From Syntrophobacterales bacterium (GTDB taxonomy: Bacteria > Desulfobacterota > Desulfobaccia > Desulfobaccales > 0-14-0-80-60-11), in NCBI GenBank assembly GCA_023512475.1, contig JAILZL010000004.1:12528-76527 (forward strand): a stretch of DNA of 64,000 bases. The letters are read 5' to 3'. The notes below the pieces were generated by a model that did not search any database, had not been told where the DNA came from, and saw only the letters and a program-made list of their open reading frames with translations. A program made the position numbers and the translations under genes. Positions 35,879-53,910 of the stretch are shown here, piece after piece. The first letter of the stretch is position 1. Each line of letters opens with the position of its first letter.

Positions 35879-37090
35879 TCATTTCCTCCCCGCCGGCAGC
35901 GGGACCATCACCCTGGCCTGGGCCCTCTCCGGCGGATAGACCGGCACCAGACGCCCGCCCTGGATCTGCACCACCACATGGTGATAATCCAGGGGGTCGC
36001 CGTGGGCGTCGAACCGCACCCGCCCCAGAGGCAGGGTGAGATCCAGGGTCCTCAGTTCCTTAACCACCTGCTCCCCGGTGGGGGCGGGAGACCGGGCCAG
36101 GGCCCGCTCCAGGGCGGTGAGGAGAACCCGGGCCGAGGCGTAGCCATGCATGGCCGTGGTGGTGGGGCTCTGCTGGAAGCGTGCCTCAAAGGCCGTGATG
36201 AAGGCCTGGGAGTCCTTTTCGGTGCCCGGCCAGGTGACCCCCGGCGTCCAGGCGCAGGTGCCCAGCACGCCTTCGCTGAGCTCCCCCAGCTCCGCGATGA
36301 AGCTGGGATAGGCGGCCCCCCAGGGCGCCAGCAAAGCCTGAAGCTGCAGCCGCTGCTCCCGCAGCTGGCGGGTCAGAAGCAGGTTGTCCGGATAAAACCC
36401 CCCGGAGATGAGCACCTCGCAGCCGGTCATCCGCACCTTGAGGAGGGCCATGGAGAAATCCGGGGCCCCGGGGCGGAATTTCTCCTTCACCGGGATGCGG
36501 ATGCCCTGGCGGGTGAGGCGCTCCTCCACCCCCTCGGCGAATTCCAGGGACCCGGGGGTGGCCATGTAGATGAGGGCCACCTGCTGGGGCCGCAGTACCT
36601 CCCCCACCAAGCGGCACACCGGGGAGAGGATGCCCTCCAGGTTGGAGATCCGGAAAAAGTAGGGGTTGTGACGCTTTCTGGTGAGGGCCGCCTGCAGGCT
36701 GGCGGAGGCCACATACGGCACCTGGTGTTTGGCCGCCATTTCGCTGATGGGCCCCACCAGAGTGTCCACATAGCCGCCCACCAGCCCCACCACCCTCTCC
36801 CGAGTGATGAGATCCTGGGCCTGATTAAGGGCGATCTCCGGCCGGCTCTGATCATCCCGGGAGAGGAGTTTCACCCGGCGCCCGGCGAGGCCGCCCCGGG
36901 CGTTGACCTCTTCCACCGCCAGGGCGATGCCCTGGTGGATCTCCAGCCCGTGTTTGGCCAAGGCGCCGGTGAGGGGATTGATCTCCCCCAGGGCCAGCTC
37001 CTGGACCGCGGCCTTGCCGGAACCGGCGCCGGCCAGCAGCAGCACCGCCGCCAGCCCTAACAGCCATCCGTGCCTCCCCCCCTGCCGCAT
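35879..37090 (-). CDS. ABC transporter substrate-binding protein (LivK/type-1 periplasmic binding fold)
   Basis: ATG at 37090 gives a signal peptide (GWLLGLAAVLLLAGAGSGKA). Followed by LGEINPLTGALAKHG, typical of Leu/Ile/Val-binding-protein-family SBPs. Confidence 0.75.
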   Translation of the reverse strand: MRQGGRHGWLLGLAAVLLLAGAGSGKAAVQELALGEINPLTGALAKHGLEIHQGIALAVEEVNARGGLAGRRVKLLSRDDQSRPEIALNQAQDLITRERVVGLVGGYVDTLVGPISEMAAKHQVPYVASASLQAALTRKRHNPYFFRISNLEGILSPVCRLVGEVLRPQQVALIYMATPGSLEFAEGVEERLTRQGIRIPVKEKFRPGAPDFSMALLKVRMTGCEVLISGGFYPDNLLLTRQLREQRLQLQALLAPWGAAYPSFIAELGELSEGVLGTCAWTPGVTWPGTEKDSQAFITAFEARFQQSPTTTAMHGYASARVLLTALERALARSPAPTGEQVVKELRTLDLTLPLGRVRFDAHGDPLDYHHVVVQIQGGRLVPVYPPERAQARVMVPLPAGRK

Positions 37091-37339
37091 GCCTCCATCC
37101 TTGCCAGCTATTTGGGAAAACCTGCACAATTTATTTACCCCTTTTTCCGCCCCGGTGCCAGGAATTTTCTCGGCAGCTTTTCACCATGGCTCTTAAAGAG
37201 GGCGCCAGGAGAAGAAATGTGGCTCCCGGGACGTGCCCCGGAGGGACCCGGGGAGGCCCTTTCTCCCAGGCCGGCAGCCTGATACAATGGCCGGAAAGCG
37301 GCCGGCGGAAGGCTGTTTTTCAGGCCGGGGAGCGAAGAG

Positions 37340-47794: not shown

Positions 47795-48222
47795 GCTGCA
47801 CCTCCGGGGGTCGGGACGGCGGCGGCAATGTGGCCCTGGGCCTCCCCTCGGCTTCAGGCTACCGGCCCCGCTTCTTCCTGTCAACGCCGGAGTGCCCTGG
47901 AAGGAATATTATGGGGGCCTGCACCTGATTGTGGGCGCAGGGTCCGGGGAGGGCGGACTCCTCCCCCTCCTTTCCCCCACCTTCTCCAAGGCTTTCCGGG
48001 GGGCCTCCCGCCGGTTAAGAGGGCGATTCCGGCCATCTTGTGCGGCTTTTTATGGTAAAAGAGGGCAGGAAAACCCACCTCCGCTCCCCGGGGAAACGGG
48101 GGCGGCACCACCTGCACCTCGAAGATGAATGAGAGACGCTCTCTCCCGACCCTGAAGGCACCGTGCGCCCGGCTTTCATCCGCCACCGGGCTTACGGCCG
48201 GCCTCCCGGCAGGAGGCGCCTG

Positions 48223-49626
48223 ATGTCCGCCGCGCCGCCCCCGGGCCATGGGGTGCTGGCCAAGTTCGGCGCCCTGCTTCTCTCCCGCTGGCTGAAGGAA
48301 GGCCTGCAGGCCCTGTTCCTCATTTATCTGGCCCGGGTGAGCGCCCCCCGGTTCGGGGAATTCGTGCTCGCCCTGGAACTGGGGGCCGTGGTCCTTTTGG
48401 CGGCGGAATTCGGCTTCAATGTGGCTCTGGTGCCCCACCTGGGCCGGAACCCCGAAGAAGCGAAGGCGGCCGTGAGCCGGATCTCCTGCCTCAAGGCGCT
48501 CCTTCTGGGACTGGTCTGGCTGGGGTTGGCAGGATTGGTCCGGTGGCAGGGCTATCCGCCGGAGCTTCAGCGGGTGGTCCTGCTCATTGCCGGCGGCGTG
48601 GGCCTGGAGGCGCTGGCCAGCACCTTCTTCACCTGGCTGCAGGTTCAGGGCAGGCAGGCGGCGGAGGGACGGCTGCGGGCGGCTGCCGCGGTGGTGGGTC
48701 TGGGCTATGCCTTCCTCACCCTGGCCGCGGGCGCCCCCAGCGTGGTGGTGGCGCTGTTCAAGATCTGGGAAAACCTGGTCAACCTGGCGGGGGTGCTTTG
48801 GCTTCTGGGGCGCACCCGCCCCTGGACCCTGCGCCGGCCGGCATGGGGGGATCTGTGGGCCACCTTCCGCCAGGGGATTCATTTCGGGCTCCTGGCGGTG
48901 TTGTCGGCCCTCCTGAGCCGGGTCAACCTGCTGTTTTTGCAGTCCTACGGCGGCAGCGCCCAGGTGGCCCAGTACGGCGCGGCCTGGCCCCTGGTGGACG
49001 GCCTGCATGCCATTATCTCGGGGCTGCTGCTGCAGAGCGTCCTTTATCCCCTCTTTGTCCGGCTCACCGCCGACGACCCGGGGGAGCTCTCCCGCCTGGC
49101 CCGGCATGCCGGCCACTGGCTGCTGGGCCTGTCCCTGATCATCGCCCTGGCCTTGGCCCTGGAAAAGGACCGCCTCATTCCCCTCATCTTCGGGCCCCAG
49201 TATCCGGAGGCGGTGGAGGTCCTGGGGATCCTGGTCTTTGCGGTGCCCATGGTTTTCCTCCAGAGCCTGGCGGGCTTTGCCTTGCTCAGCCTTCGACAGG
49301 AGCGGCTGCTGGTGGTCTTTTTCGGCGGCGGTCTCCTGTTTGCCCTGGCCTTTTGCAGCCTGACGGTACCCTGCTGGCCTCTGGCCGGCGCGGCCTGGGC
49401 CATGGTGTTCAGCCGCGGGCTGGTGACCGGGGCGGCGCTGTGGGCCATCCACCGGCGGCTGCCGCTCCTGTCCTGGCGGCCGGCCGTCCTGCTTCTCCTG
49501 GCGGCCGGGCTGGGCTGGGGGCTGTGCCGGGGCCTGAGCCCTTTCCTGCCCCGGGAGGCCGCCGAGCTTCTGGGGCTGGCCCCCCTGATGGCGGCCCTGT
49601 GGCGTCAGAGACTGGCCCGGGGATGA
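48223..49626 (+). CDS. Oligosaccharide flippase / polysaccharide biosynthesis membrane protein (MOP-family-like)
   Basis: ATG at 48223 preceded by AGGAGG. About 467 aa, polytopic throughout. The N-terminal pattern LSRWLKEGLQALFLIYLARVSAPRFGEF resembles Wzx/RfbX-type proteins. Confidence 0.55.
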   Translation: MSAAPPPGHGVLAKFGALLLSRWLKEGLQALFLIYLARVSAPRFGEFVLALELGAVVLLAAEFGFNVALVPHLGRNPEEAKAAVSRISCLKALLLGLVWLGLAGLVRWQGYPPELQRVVLLIAGGVGLEALASTFFTWLQVQGRQAAEGRLRAAAAVVGLGYAFLTLAAGAPSVVVALFKIWENLVNLAGVLWLLGRTRPWTLRRPAWGDLWATFRQGIHFGLLAVLSALLSRVNLLFLQSYGGSAQVAQYGAAWPLVDGLHAIISGLLLQSVLYPLFVRLTADDPGELSRLARHAGHWLLGLSLIIALALALEKDRLIPLIFGPQYPEAVEVLGILVFAVPMVFLQSLAGFALLSLRQERLLVVFFGGGLLFALAFCSLTVPCWPLAGAAWAMVFSRGLVTGAALWAIHRRLPLLSWRPAVLLLLAAGLGWGLCRGLSPFLPREAAELLGLAPLMAALWRQRLARG

Positions 49627-49665
49627 ACGGCGGGGTTTTTTTTTCCGGGGCAGCAAATTTTTTCC

Positions 49666-49694
49666 TTGACACCTTTCCGGCTCCTGATTATATA
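49666..49694 (+). promoter_or_regulatory. Near-consensus sigma70 promoter with no adjacent gene
   Basis: TTGACA (49666-49671), 17-nt spacer, TATATA (49689-49694), in an AT-rich patch just after the flippase stop. Confidence 0.5.
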
Positions 49695-49700
49695 TAATTC

Positions 49701-49772
49701 AAGTCAGGACCTTTATGGTTCTAACCCCCCCAAACGCCTCCGGTACCTCCCCCACCGGGGGCGTTTTCTTTT
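49701..49772 (+). ncRNA. Candidate small RNA (about 70 nt) bounded by the promoter and an intrinsic terminator
   Basis: The predicted TSS is near 49701. The 5' part is C-rich (ctaaccccccca). The terminator is ACGCCTCCGG (49734-49743) / CCGGGGGCGT (49755-49764), 10 bp with one G-U pair and loop tacctccccca, followed by TTTCTTTT. Confidence 0.35.
49734..49772 (+). terminator. Rho-independent terminator
   Basis: 10-bp GC-rich stem (one G-U pair), 11-nt loop, T-rich tail tttctttt. Confidence 0.55.
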
Positions 49773-50106
49773 CCGGCGGCCTTTTCCCCCGGCGGCGGCA
49801 CGCCCTGACCGGGCCCACATCCCGGCCCGGCCCCGGGCGCACGGCCCGGTCACGAGATTTTCCCGCCGGCGGCTTGCTTTTTTCTTTCACATCCGCTATA
49901 AAAGAAGCGTTCAGTCGCTTGGGGCGGCTGGCCCGATTTCACGGATACGAGGCATATTCACCGGGTGAGGAGGCGGCCCCCTCCCGGAAGCCGGGAGGCG
50001 GGATGCGCCTGCCACGATTCCAGGTACGCCGGCAGTTAGACACGTTTCACCATGCCCTGCACCCGCCGGGCTCCCTGACGGCCCCGCCTCTCACCGCCCG
50101 TCCTGT

Positions 50107-51216
50107 ATGGCACCCACGGCCCCCATCACATCGCTGATCCAGCCTCATCTGCTGCAGCTGAGTCCTTATCAGGCCGGTAAGCCCCTGGAGGAACTGGCCC
50201 GGGAGCTGGGTCTGACGGATGCCATCAAGCTGGCCTCCAACGAAAATCCCCTGGGCCCCTCCCCCAAGGCCGTGGCCGCCATTCAGGCGGAGCTGGCCCA
50301 CCTGCATCGGTATCCCGACAGCCATGTCTATTACCTCCGGGAGGAGCTCAGCCGCCACCTGGGAGTCAAGCCCGAGCAGCTCATCTTCGGCAATGGCTCC
50401 GACGAGATCCTCGACCTGCTGGTGCGGGCCGTGGTACCCCCTGGGGGCGAAGTGGTGAGCACCGCCCATTCCTTTCTGATGTACGGCCTCCTCACCCAGG
50501 CGGTGGGCGGGGTATTTCGGGCCGTGCCCCTGAAAGACCTGGCCGTGGACCTGGAGGCGGTGGCCGCGGCCATCACCCCCCGGACCCGGCTCGTGCTCCT
50601 GAACAATCCCAACAACCCCACCGGCACCGCCTTCTCCCGGAAGGACTGGGAGGCCTTTCTCGCCACCCTGCCGCCCACGGTGACGGTGGCGCTGGATGAG
50701 GCCTATATCGAATTTGCCGCGGACCCCGAGGTGGCCCAGGGGCTCCCCTACCTGGCCGAGGACCGGCCCCTGGTGGGCCTCCGGACCTTCTCCAAGGCCT
50801 ACGGCCTGGCGGGGCTGCGGGTGGGCTACGCCTATGGGCCCAGCGCCCTGATGGAGTGTCTCAACCGTCTGCGGCTGCCTTTCAATGTCAACCGTCTGGC
50901 CCAGGCCGGGGCCCGGGCGGCCCTGGGGGATACGGAGTTTCTGGCCCGCACCCGCGAGCTGGTGTGGGAGGGGCGGGAGTTTCTCACCCGGGAACTCACC
51001 CGCCTGGGGGTCACGGTGGTGCCCAGCCAGGCCAATTTCCTCCTGGTGGCCGTGGGCCGGCCGGGGCGCCAGGTCTATGAGGCCATGCTCCGGCAAGGGG
51101 TCATCATCCGGGCCATGGATGCCTATGGTTTTCCGGAGCATATCCGGGTGAATGTGGGCCTGCCGGAGGAGAACCAGCGCTTCCTGGCGGCCTTCCGCAC
51201 GGTCATGGGGTTGTAG
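50107..51216 (+). CDS. hisC: Histidinol-phosphate aminotransferase
   Basis: LASNENPLGPSPKA and PLP-lysine region RTFSKAYGLAGLRVGY. 369 aa. Confidence 0.9.
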   Translation: MAPTAPITSLIQPHLLQLSPYQAGKPLEELARELGLTDAIKLASNENPLGPSPKAVAAIQAELAHLHRYPDSHVYYLREELSRHLGVKPEQLIFGNGSDEILDLLVRAVVPPGGEVVSTAHSFLMYGLLTQAVGGVFRAVPLKDLAVDLEAVAAAITPRTRLVLLNNPNNPTGTAFSRKDWEAFLATLPPTVTVALDEAYIEFAADPEVAQGLPYLAEDRPLVGLRTFSKAYGLAGLRVGYAYGPSALMECLNRLRLPFNVNRLAQAGARAALGDTEFLARTRELVWEGREFLTRELTRLGVTVVPSQANFLLVAVGRPGRQVYEAMLRQGVIIRAMDAYGFPEHIRVNVGLPEENQRFLAAFRTVMGL

Positions 51217-52041: not shown

Positions 52042-53910
52042 ATGATCGACCTGGACAACAAAGAAGAAACCCTGCACCACCCACCTGGAGACGTTGAGAT
52101 CCAGAATCAGCAAGACGAGCCCCGCGAACCGATGCTGCAGGCCGCTCCGGCCATCGAGGCCGGCCCGGCCCCGGAGCCCGCCGCCCCGGCGCCGGCCCCT
52201 GAAGCCCCGGCCGGGGGCGAGGAGGAGGAAGAGGTCACCATGTCGGAGCTCTACGAGGAGAGCCTCCGGCGGGTGCAGGAAGGCGAAGTGGTGCGCGGCC
52301 GCATCGTCTCCCTCACCAAAGACTACGTCATGGTGGACATCGGTTATAAGAGTGAGGGCCAGATTCCCATCTCCGAGTTCACTTCGCCGGACGGCGAGGT
52401 GACCGCCAAGGTGGGGGATCAGGTGGAGGCATTGCTGGAAAGCCGGGAAGATGAAGAAGGTCCCCTCATGCTGTCCAAGATCAAGGCTTCCCGCCTCAAG
52501 GTCTGGGAGGAAATCTCCTACGCCTACCACAACGAAGGCGTGGTGGAGGGCACCATCACCGCCAAGGTGAAGGGCGGCTTCTCCGTGGACCTGGGGGGCA
52601 TCACCGCCTTTCTGCCCGGCTCCCAGGTGGATCTGGTGCCGGTGCGGCACCCCGACAGCCTCATCGGGCAGAAATTCACCTTCCACGTCCTCAAGTTCAA
52701 CCGCAAGCGCCGGAATGTGGTGCTCTCCCGCCGCACCCTGCTGGAGAAGGCCAAAAACGAAGCCAAGGCCACCCTGCTCGCCACCCTGGAGGAAGGCAAG
52801 GTGGTGGAAGGGGTGGTGAAAAACATCACCGATTACGGCATCTTCGTGGACCTGGGGGGGCTGGACGGCCTTTTGCACGTCACCGATCTCTCCTACGGCC
52901 GCATCCGCCATCCCGGAGACCTGTTCAAGGTGGGCGACACCATCACCGTCAAGGTGCTGAGCTTTGACAAGGACAAGGAGCGCATCTCCCTGGGACTGAA
53001 GCAGCTCCACCCCGATCCCTGGACCATGGTGCAGGAGCGCTACCCCATCGGCGCCGTGGTCACCGGCAAGGTGGTGAGCCTCACCGATTACGGGGCCTTC
53101 GTGGAGCTGGAGCCCGGGGTGGAGGGCCTCATCCACATCTCGGAGATGTCCTGGACCCGCAAGATCCGCCACCCCTCCCAGATCCTCAGCGCCGGGGATG
53201 TGGTGGAGGTGAAGATCCTGGAGGTGGAGCCCCAGCGCAAGCGCATCTCCCTGAGCCTGCGCCAGGTGGAGCCCAACCCCTGGGAGGTCATCGGGGACAA
53301 ATACCCCGTGGGGTCGGTCATCGAGGGCAAGATCAAAAACATCACCGACTTCGGCATCTTCATCGGCATTGACGAAGGCATCGACGGCCTGGTGCACATC
53401 TCCGACATCTCCTGGACCAAGCGCTTCAAACACCCCTCCGAGATCTTCAAGAAGGGCCAGACGGTGCAGGCCAAGGTGCTGGCCATCGACAAGGAGAACG
53501 AGCGCTTCTCCCTGAGCATCAAGGAGCTGAACCCCAACCCGTGGGAGACCATCGACCAGCGCTACCCGGTGGGCGCGGTGGTCTCCGGCCCCATCACCAA
53601 TATCACCGACTTCGGGCTCTTTGTGGAGATCGAGGAAGGGATCGAGGGCCTGGTGCACATCTCCGAATACAGCCGGGACAAGGAGAAGACCGCCTCCCTG
53701 AAGGTGGGGGAGGTGATCCGGGCCAAGGTCATCCACTGTTCCCCTCAGGAGCGGCGCATTGGGTTGTCCATCCGCCGGCTGGAGACCGAAGAGGAGCAGC
53801 GCACCTACCGGGATTACCTCAAGGGCTCCCAGGAAGCCACCACCTCCTTGGGGGACCTGCTGCGGGAATCCCTGGGGGACAGCGAATCCCGCAAAAACGG
53901 CCCGAAATGA
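52042..53910 (+). CDS. rpsA: 30S ribosomal protein S1
   Basis: Six S1 (OB-fold) repeats with recurring G-x-V-x-G-x-V / DYGAFV/DFGIFV / GLVHISE motifs. The alternative start at ATG 52240 (MSELYEESL) would remove a 66-aa acidic/Pro-Ala N-terminal extension. Confidence 0.95.
   Translation: MIDLDNKEETLHHPPGDVEIQNQQDEPREPMLQAAPAIEAGPAPEPAAPAPAPEAPAGGEEEEEVTMSELYEESLRRVQEGEVVRGRIVSLTKDYVMVDIGYKSEGQIPISEFTSPDGEVTAKVGDQVEALLESREDEEGPLMLSKIKASRLKVWEEISYAYHNEGVVEGTITAKVKGGFSVDLGGITAFLPGSQVDLVPVRHPDSLIGQKFTFHVLKFNRKRRNVVLSRRTLLEKAKNEAKATLLATLEEGKVVEGVVKNITDYGIFVDLGGLDGLLHVTDLSYGRIRHPGDLFKVGDTITVKVLSFDKDKERISLGLKQLHPDPWTMVQERYPIGAVVTGKVVSLTDYGAFVELEPGVEGLIHISEMSWTRKIRHPSQILSAGDVVEVKILEVEPQRKRISLSLRQVEPNPWEVIGDKYPVGSVIEGKIKNITDFGIFIGIDEGIDGLVHISDISWTKRFKHPSEIFKKGQTVQAKVLAIDKENERFSLSIKELNPNPWETIDQRYPVGAVVSGPITNITDFGLFVEIEEGIEGLVHISEYSRDKEKTASLKVGEVIRAKVIHCSPQERRIGLSIRRLETEEEQRTYRDYLKGSQEATTSLGDLLRESLGDSESRKNGPK

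Follow-up and report, generated by a model that had tools for sequence, protein, structure and literature searches.

The stretch of DNA analyzed here (the window, 64 kb) contains a flippase-like gene (Polysacc_synt, 48163-49626) followed by the aminotransferase gene hisC (50107-51216), both assigned by Pfam. Between the two genes lie, on the forward strand, a sigma70-type promoter, a predicted transcript of ~72 nt with an intrinsic terminator (49701-49772), and a separate promoter and leader of hisC. No Rfam family was found at its gathering score anywhere in the 64-kb window, and no tRNA or tmRNA was detected in it.

The promoter of the unit consists of the -35 hexamer TTGACA (49666-49671) and, 17 nt downstream, the -10 hexamer TATATA (49689-49694). 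The initial annotation considered this the best sigma70 match in the window. The element is present as described, and it is joint best by a simple -35/-10 count (10 of 12 matches); no other promoter of the window with this score has a perfect -35 box. The pattern TTGACA-N17-TATAWW with one mismatch or fewer gave a single match in the 64-kb window, where 0.02 are expected from shuffled sequence. The promoter was missing from the list produced by the routine promoter scan because the rule used in that scan demands a T at the last -10 position. Seven distinct loci, including the window, were found to carry the unit. The -35 hexamer is invariant in all of them and is followed after exactly 17 nt by a -10 box of the form TAnnnW (TATATA, TATAAA, TATCAA, TATCTT, TAACTT, TATATT, TATTTT), while the sequence of the spacer is free. 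With the alignment anchored at the inferred +1, six variable bases separate the -10 box from the invariant AAGUCAGGACC... start in each of the seven loci. The A/T tract AATTTT (49656-49661) is located just 5' of the -35 box. This tract (AATTTT or ATTTT) keeps a constant distance from the -35 box in 7/7 loci while the neighboring bases vary, and it is probably a UP-element-like sequence or a regulator site. A run of nine T (49636-49644) was also observed 10 nt past the flippase stop codon and ~20 nt before the -35 box, and similar T/A runs occupy the matching place in L081 and L082; the run could be the tail of a flippase terminator, a UP-like element, or both.

The predicted transcript (49701-49772, forward strand) reads AAGUCAGGACCUUUAUGGUUCUAACCCCCCCAAACGCCUCCGGUACCUCCCCCACCGGGGGCGUUUUCUUUU; its putative +1 is an A and its 3' end falls in the U tract. 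Its predicted fold begins with a 6-bp 5' hairpin (AGGACC / UUUAU / GGUUCU, 49706-49722), which is present in the minimum free energy (MFE) structure of all seven variants and is 100% conserved in both the stem and the UUUAU loop. A single-stranded C run follows (49725-49731), with seven C in the window and eight in relatives; it is the first candidate seed. The terminator hairpin (49732-49766) has a G+C-rich stem of 13 bp, in which AAACGCCUCCGGU (49732-49744) pairs with ACCGGGGGCGUUU (49754-49766). Its 9-nt loop, ACCUCCCCC (49745-49753), is anti-Shine-Dalgarno (anti-SD)-like and is the second candidate seed; the CCUCCCCC motif within it is predicted to be unpaired. The U tract of the terminator, UUUUCUUUU (49764-49772), is kept in 7/7 loci. 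A stem of 10 bp with a U-rich tail had been recognized from the start; both are present, and the stem extends to 13 bp. The two exposed C tracts noted at the same time are both predicted to be unpaired; however, the CCCCCCC run is a linker between the hairpins and not part of a stem arm.

Folding of a 75-nt transcript including both hairpins gave an MFE of -30 kcal/mol; compared with 200 dinucleotide shuffles, none of which folded as well, z is -4.85. The MFE structure represents 51% of the ensemble, and each of the seven variants has this two-hairpin arrangement as its own MFE structure. In every variant the C run is predicted to be unpaired (mean probability 0.88-0.92), as is the terminator loop (1.00).

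An exact match to HisC of the window is not on record. Placement of the organism in the Desulfobaccales (Thermodesulfobacteriota) is based on GTDB hisC loci of 72-77% identity and on the names carried by the HisC cluster of 94% identity. Relatives were reached via HisC homologs and their contigs. The unit was identified in the window and in L081, L082, L085, L086, L087, and L097, after duplicates from the same contig or with the same sequence had been merged (L083, L084, and L096 with L082; L088 with L087). Covariance-model scores of the unit at the seven distinct loci are 87-109 bits, and HisC of the relatives that carry it is 81-94% identical to that of the window. The unit was not found beside hisC where HisC identity is 80% or lower (L089, L090, L092, L094, L098) or in GTDB relatives with HisC 72-77% identical, and a BLAST search of the intergenic region against 80 GTDB hisC loci returned only noise. 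A scan of metagenomes with the pattern CCCCCCCAAA-N9-13-ACCTCCCCCA-N9-13-TTTT gave one contig, which was already known. The pattern was one base too tight, since the short-stem variants have N8 in the 3' gap; the breadth of the distribution is therefore under-sampled. No second copy was detected by the covariance model in the 64-kb window or in 46 other sources, where weak matches (E = 0.005-0.3) were G+C-rich hairpins inside coding regions. Searches of plasmid, phage, and viral collections gave no match to the unit. An origin on a mobile element was considered and ruled out by this absence from plasmid, phage, and viral contigs.

The transcript is 93-99% identical over all pairs of loci, compared with 55-73% for third codon positions of hisC and 43-68% for the 90-100 nt flanking the unit on either side. 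Near-invariance begins at C49700/A49701, 7 nt past the -10 box, with the +1 A kept, and stops in the U tail. The stretch of the transcript between promoter and terminator hairpin is 100% conserved in its 5' hairpin; the changes observed are the difference of seven or eight C in the linker and an A-to-C change adjoining it. In four sequences the terminator stem is shorter by one base pair, missing from both sides, and a U-G/C-G exchange is found once. All 129 of 129 pair cells remain standard pairs among the seven sequences, with no pair changed on both sides in either helix. The helices are invariant, hence there is no covariation signal. Covariation speaks neither for nor against the fold; the support for it is thermodynamic and comes from the paired deletion. 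Comparison at the sequence level demonstrates purifying selection on both the promoter geometry and the transcript. The invariant -35 box, the fixed spacing with a free spacer, the near-invariant transcript, and its abrupt end at seven loci strongly support the main reading of the initial annotation, a C-rich sRNA of ~70 nt. We consider it very probable that 49701-49772 is a genuine, independent sRNA gene.

Three kinds of upstream neighbor were observed: the polysaccharide flippase, a two-component system with a small open reading frame (ORF), and a divergent gene. The unit stays while the neighbor changes, which means that it does not belong to the end of the preceding gene. This bears on an alternative according to which a promoter-like sequence happens to precede an ordinary terminator of the flippase gene and no separate gene exists. 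The terminator hairpin begins 106 nt past the flippase stop codon (49626), and A/T-rich intergenic DNA in a genome of 67% G+C readily yields -10-like hexamers. However, the unit also follows unrelated genes, one of them divergently oriented. Neither the -35 box nor the 17-nt spacing varies at any of the seven loci, around a spacer of free sequence, and the promoter match is expected by chance 0.02 times per window. The interval between promoter and hairpin, which is irrelevant to a terminator, is 100% conserved as well. A chance promoter before a flippase terminator thus appears largely refuted by these comparisons, and we give it hardly any probability. The small ORF (61-105 aa) at the loci with the two-component system is itself conserved. 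It lies just upstream of the sRNA promoter (L085 2337-2522, L086 2311-2556, L087 2187-2504) and encodes the motif W..FLEEE...GL.CFY....S.EV.HW, with no Pfam match on record. A second tiny ORF, preceded by an AGGAGG Shine-Dalgarno sequence, was observed further upstream of it.

A gene for a small protein beginning at ATG 49715, perhaps within a dual-function RNA, was also considered. The ATG is conserved at +15 and is preceded by a weak AGGA 5 nt upstream. Against this, indels of 1 nt in the C run and in the stem shift the frame between relatives, and the products range from 18 to 129 aa, share only MVL(T/P)PP, and read through the terminator into unconserved DNA. The ATG is moreover located inside the 5' hairpin. 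Coding potential of the unit was ruled out on the basis of the differing frames from this sole ATG and the lack of a conserved ORF; a small protein is extremely unlikely.

The initial annotation placed hisC about 335 nt further on, which is correct (ATG at 50107), and reported no obvious promoter for it. This second statement does not hold. A promoter separate from the sRNA unit, TTGCTT-17-TATAAA, was found at 49874-49902 on the forward strand, and CTTGC(A/T)TTT...TATAAA-like elements are located 234-275 nt ahead of the ATG of hisC, both in relatives that carry the sRNA and in others that do not. A comparison of the region upstream of hisC in the window and in L001-L011, L067, and L081-L098 indicated a conserved promoter proper to hisC-cmk-rpsA-sppA, followed by a structured 5' UTR of ~200 nt that is likewise conserved (promoter and UTR together, 49874-50106). 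An nhmmer profile of promoter and leader matched 29 sources (28 loci and the window, some of them duplicate contigs); by this profile, promoter and leader are confined to Desulfobaccales-type hisC loci and were not found in more distant orders. The leader contains a G-rich block, GGGUGA(A/G)GGAGGCGG, with a covarying hairpin 3' of it at about 49958-50010. A CU-rich segment complementary to the G block is located 20-60 nt before the hisC ATG, which itself has no Shine-Dalgarno sequence. A long-range helix between the G block and the CU-rich segment was predicted by RNAalifold; 9 of the 36 pairs of the consensus structure show double changes. No Rfam match to the leader was obtained, making it a candidate for an uncatalogued cis-regulatory RNA. 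The local annotation is corrected by these findings, and the leader may be a more interesting object than the sRNA. Upstream of the hisC promoter, a (G)AGATTTT motif was observed ~15-35 nt before the -35 box, at 49850-49860 in the window and at equivalent places in L081, L085, L087, and L097. It sits in otherwise unconserved DNA and may be a regulator site or a UP-like element.

The promoter at 49666 might instead serve as an upstream promoter of the hisC-cmk-rpsA operon, with the hairpin acting as a regulated terminator and the operon controlled by read-through past it. The unit lies on the same strand as hisC and ~100 nt upstream of its promoter at 7/7 loci, whatever is located further upstream, and some read-through of the terminator is physically possible. 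However, the hisC promoter and its ~200-nt leader occur just as well in relatives without the unit, and the ~100 nt between the U tail and the hisC promoter are unconserved (43-68% identity). No competing antiterminator fold was found: the MFE structure makes up 51% of the ensemble, and the upstream sequence contains no complement to the 5' arm of the stem. There is also no conserved leader ORF, no run of His codons, and no T-box or riboswitch match in Rfam, in agreement with the earlier remark that a His-rich leader peptide and T-box features are lacking. Because hisC has a conserved promoter and leader of its own, the gap is unconserved, and there is no antiterminator, we conclude that hisC is independent of the sRNA unit. 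An attenuator is not supported and is highly improbable. The fallback of a terminator/antiterminator leader is abandoned in view of the hisC promoter that also occurs without the unit, the single dominant fold, and the missing leader ORF.

The unit has the general features of a free-standing sRNA gene, namely its own selected promoter, its own intrinsic terminator, and a conserved non-coding transcript, and it was compared with known families. The Rfam search called for in the initial annotation gave weak matches only, none at threshold: ar14 (26 bits, threshold 58.8, E = 0.0082, the best E-value for the unit), 6C (28 bits, threshold 47, E = 0.13), and Scr3202 (21 bits, threshold 52). All three are small RNAs with C-rich, anti-SD-like motifs in their hairpin loops. 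The alignments to them are confined to the C tracts and the generic terminator, and as far as sequence can tell the likeness to ar14, 6C, and Scr3202 is a resemblance in kind and not membership.

The 6C RNA (RF01066) of Actinobacteria is likewise short and highly conserved, occurs in organisms of high G+C content, and exposes C runs. In mycobacteria, the C-rich loops of 6C bind G-rich ribosome-binding regions of several mRNAs without a chaperone, and pairing has been shown genetically for panD and dnaB (PMC6486639). In cmscan, the alignment of the sRNA to the 6C model covers its C run and terminator hairpin. However, 6C has two hairpins with loops of ~6 C, whereas in the sRNA the first hairpin of the model is deleted and a C-rich loop is found in the terminator only. 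The phyla differ as well (Actinomycetota versus Thermodesulfobacteriota here), and beyond the C tracts no sequence homology is seen. The likeness to 6C is convergent and does not amount to membership.

The alphaproteobacterial cuckoo RNAs (ar14, RF02344; CcsR1-4) share with the sRNA a CCUCC-containing anti-SD-like loop, small size, and a terminator-like hairpin. The cuckoo family is defined by two to four adjacent hairpins, each with CCUCCUCCC, and the loops have been described as anti-SD-like (PMC4615179). The sRNA has one hairpin with a related but different motif (CCUCCCCC, in the loop ACCUCCCCC), and its other loop is UUUAU. Cuckoo RNAs are often multicopy or clustered, whereas the sRNA is present as a single copy in the 64-kb window. 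Two further C-rich-seed sRNAs, RsaE/RoxS of Firmicutes and sX13 of Xanthomonas, follow a shared logic in which several exposed C-rich motifs in loops or linkers pair with G-rich Shine-Dalgarno regions (PMC5419742, PMC3771888). Both differ from the sRNA described here in length, fold, and sequence, and neither gave an Rfam match to it even at E ≤10. As in the C-rich-seed class, the C motifs of the sRNA are predicted to be accessible, in a loop and a linker. The sRNA is best read as a narrowly distributed family of Desulfobaccales that has not yet been catalogued and whose functional kind is familiar.

We propose that transcription of the sRNA starts at a sigma70-type promoter of its own (TTGACA-17-TATATA) and would end at its own intrinsic terminator. 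The RNA would fold into the 5' hairpin, the single-stranded CCCCCCC linker, and the 13-bp terminator hairpin. The C run and the ACCUCCCCC loop, which contains ACCUCC, the core of the anti-SD sequence of 16S rRNA, could then pair in trans with G-rich ribosome-binding sites of mRNAs, and this pairing would repress, or otherwise modulate, the target mRNAs. In this proposal the sequence features, their thermodynamic stability, and the selection on promoter and transcript are shown, whereas the points where transcription begins and stops, the action in trans, and the kind of target are inferred. The trans-acting reading is adopted because described C-rich-seed sRNAs pair with G-rich ribosome-binding regions; by this analogy, pairing of C-rich seeds with such sites is slightly favored as the mechanism. 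Taken as a whole, a free-standing sRNA gene of ~72 nt that acts through C-rich pairing to G-rich ribosome-binding sites is a reasonably likely description. Its seed model leaves the complete conservation of the 5' hairpin, loop included, unexplained. The invariant hairpin could point to a protein partner.

A different role is suggested by the downstream genes. The C-rich strands and the 5' hairpin might bind or titrate a protein, for example ribosomal protein S1, or act specifically on the hisC leader. The gene for S1, rpsA, is located two genes downstream in hisC-cmk-rpsA, and S1 prefers pyrimidine-rich single strands. The linkage of the unit to hisC-cmk-rpsA is kept across the three upstream contexts, the 5' hairpin, UUUAU loop included, shows 100% conservation that seeds acting by base pairing would not need, and the conserved leader block GGGUGA(A/G)GGAGG has partial complementarity to CCUCC..CACC in the loop of the sRNA. 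However, the predicted pairing of the seeds is unexceptional, with the leader block in the top 5% and the ribosome-binding site of rpsA in the top 9%, and emergence of the unit at this position within a young and narrow clade can account for the linkage. Binding of a protein or action on the leader is, in our estimation, unlikely. The narrower proposal of a dedicated operon partner, either a pyrimidine-rich decoy for S1 or an RNA that opens or closes, in trans, the long-range helix of the SD-less leader by competing for the G block, is less likely still. If true, such a role would amount to feedback on S1 and translation capacity by an element of a new kind.

To our knowledge, riboregulation has hardly been described in Desulfobaccales or in Thermodesulfobacteriota, which are mostly uncultivated anaerobes. 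The unit, validated by comparison among relatives, could seed an RNA family model. It would also add another independent lineage to those with C-rich, anti-SD-like seeds, a recurring solution in high-G+C bacteria. For the specialist, the sRNA overturns no concept and is expected biology in an unexplored clade.

Targets of the proposed C-rich seeds were searched for in the window. A seed-restricted duplex scan of the 64 kb gave no convincing target, and the best complements are located inside coding regions, over V-G-E-V codons. The G block of the hisC leader pairs with the seeds at -17 kcal/mol; this value and that for the ribosome-binding site of rpsA (GAAGGGGGAAC) were ranked among all 24-nt windows, which gave the two percentages above. 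A local target was dropped as the main explanation, as neither site is outstanding in the seed scan. Unrestricted RNAduplex runs of the sRNA against the hisC leader returned long spurious duplexes and were uninformative. A perfect 13-nt complement (GGUGGGGGAGGUA) to the loop region UACCUCCCCCACC was found at 36596-36608 on the minus strand and can be extended to ~19 bp with G-U pairs; the chance of such a match is estimated at ~0.02 per window. It lies in the middle of the coding sequence of the ORF at 35879-37129 (Peripla_BP_6), over the codons L-V-G-E-V-L. However, G-rich V-G-E-V codon strings are over-represented, with 23 matches at two mismatches or fewer compared with 5.3 expected, and a match of 12 of 13 nt to the same complement was observed in the coding sequence of rpsA (53703-53715).
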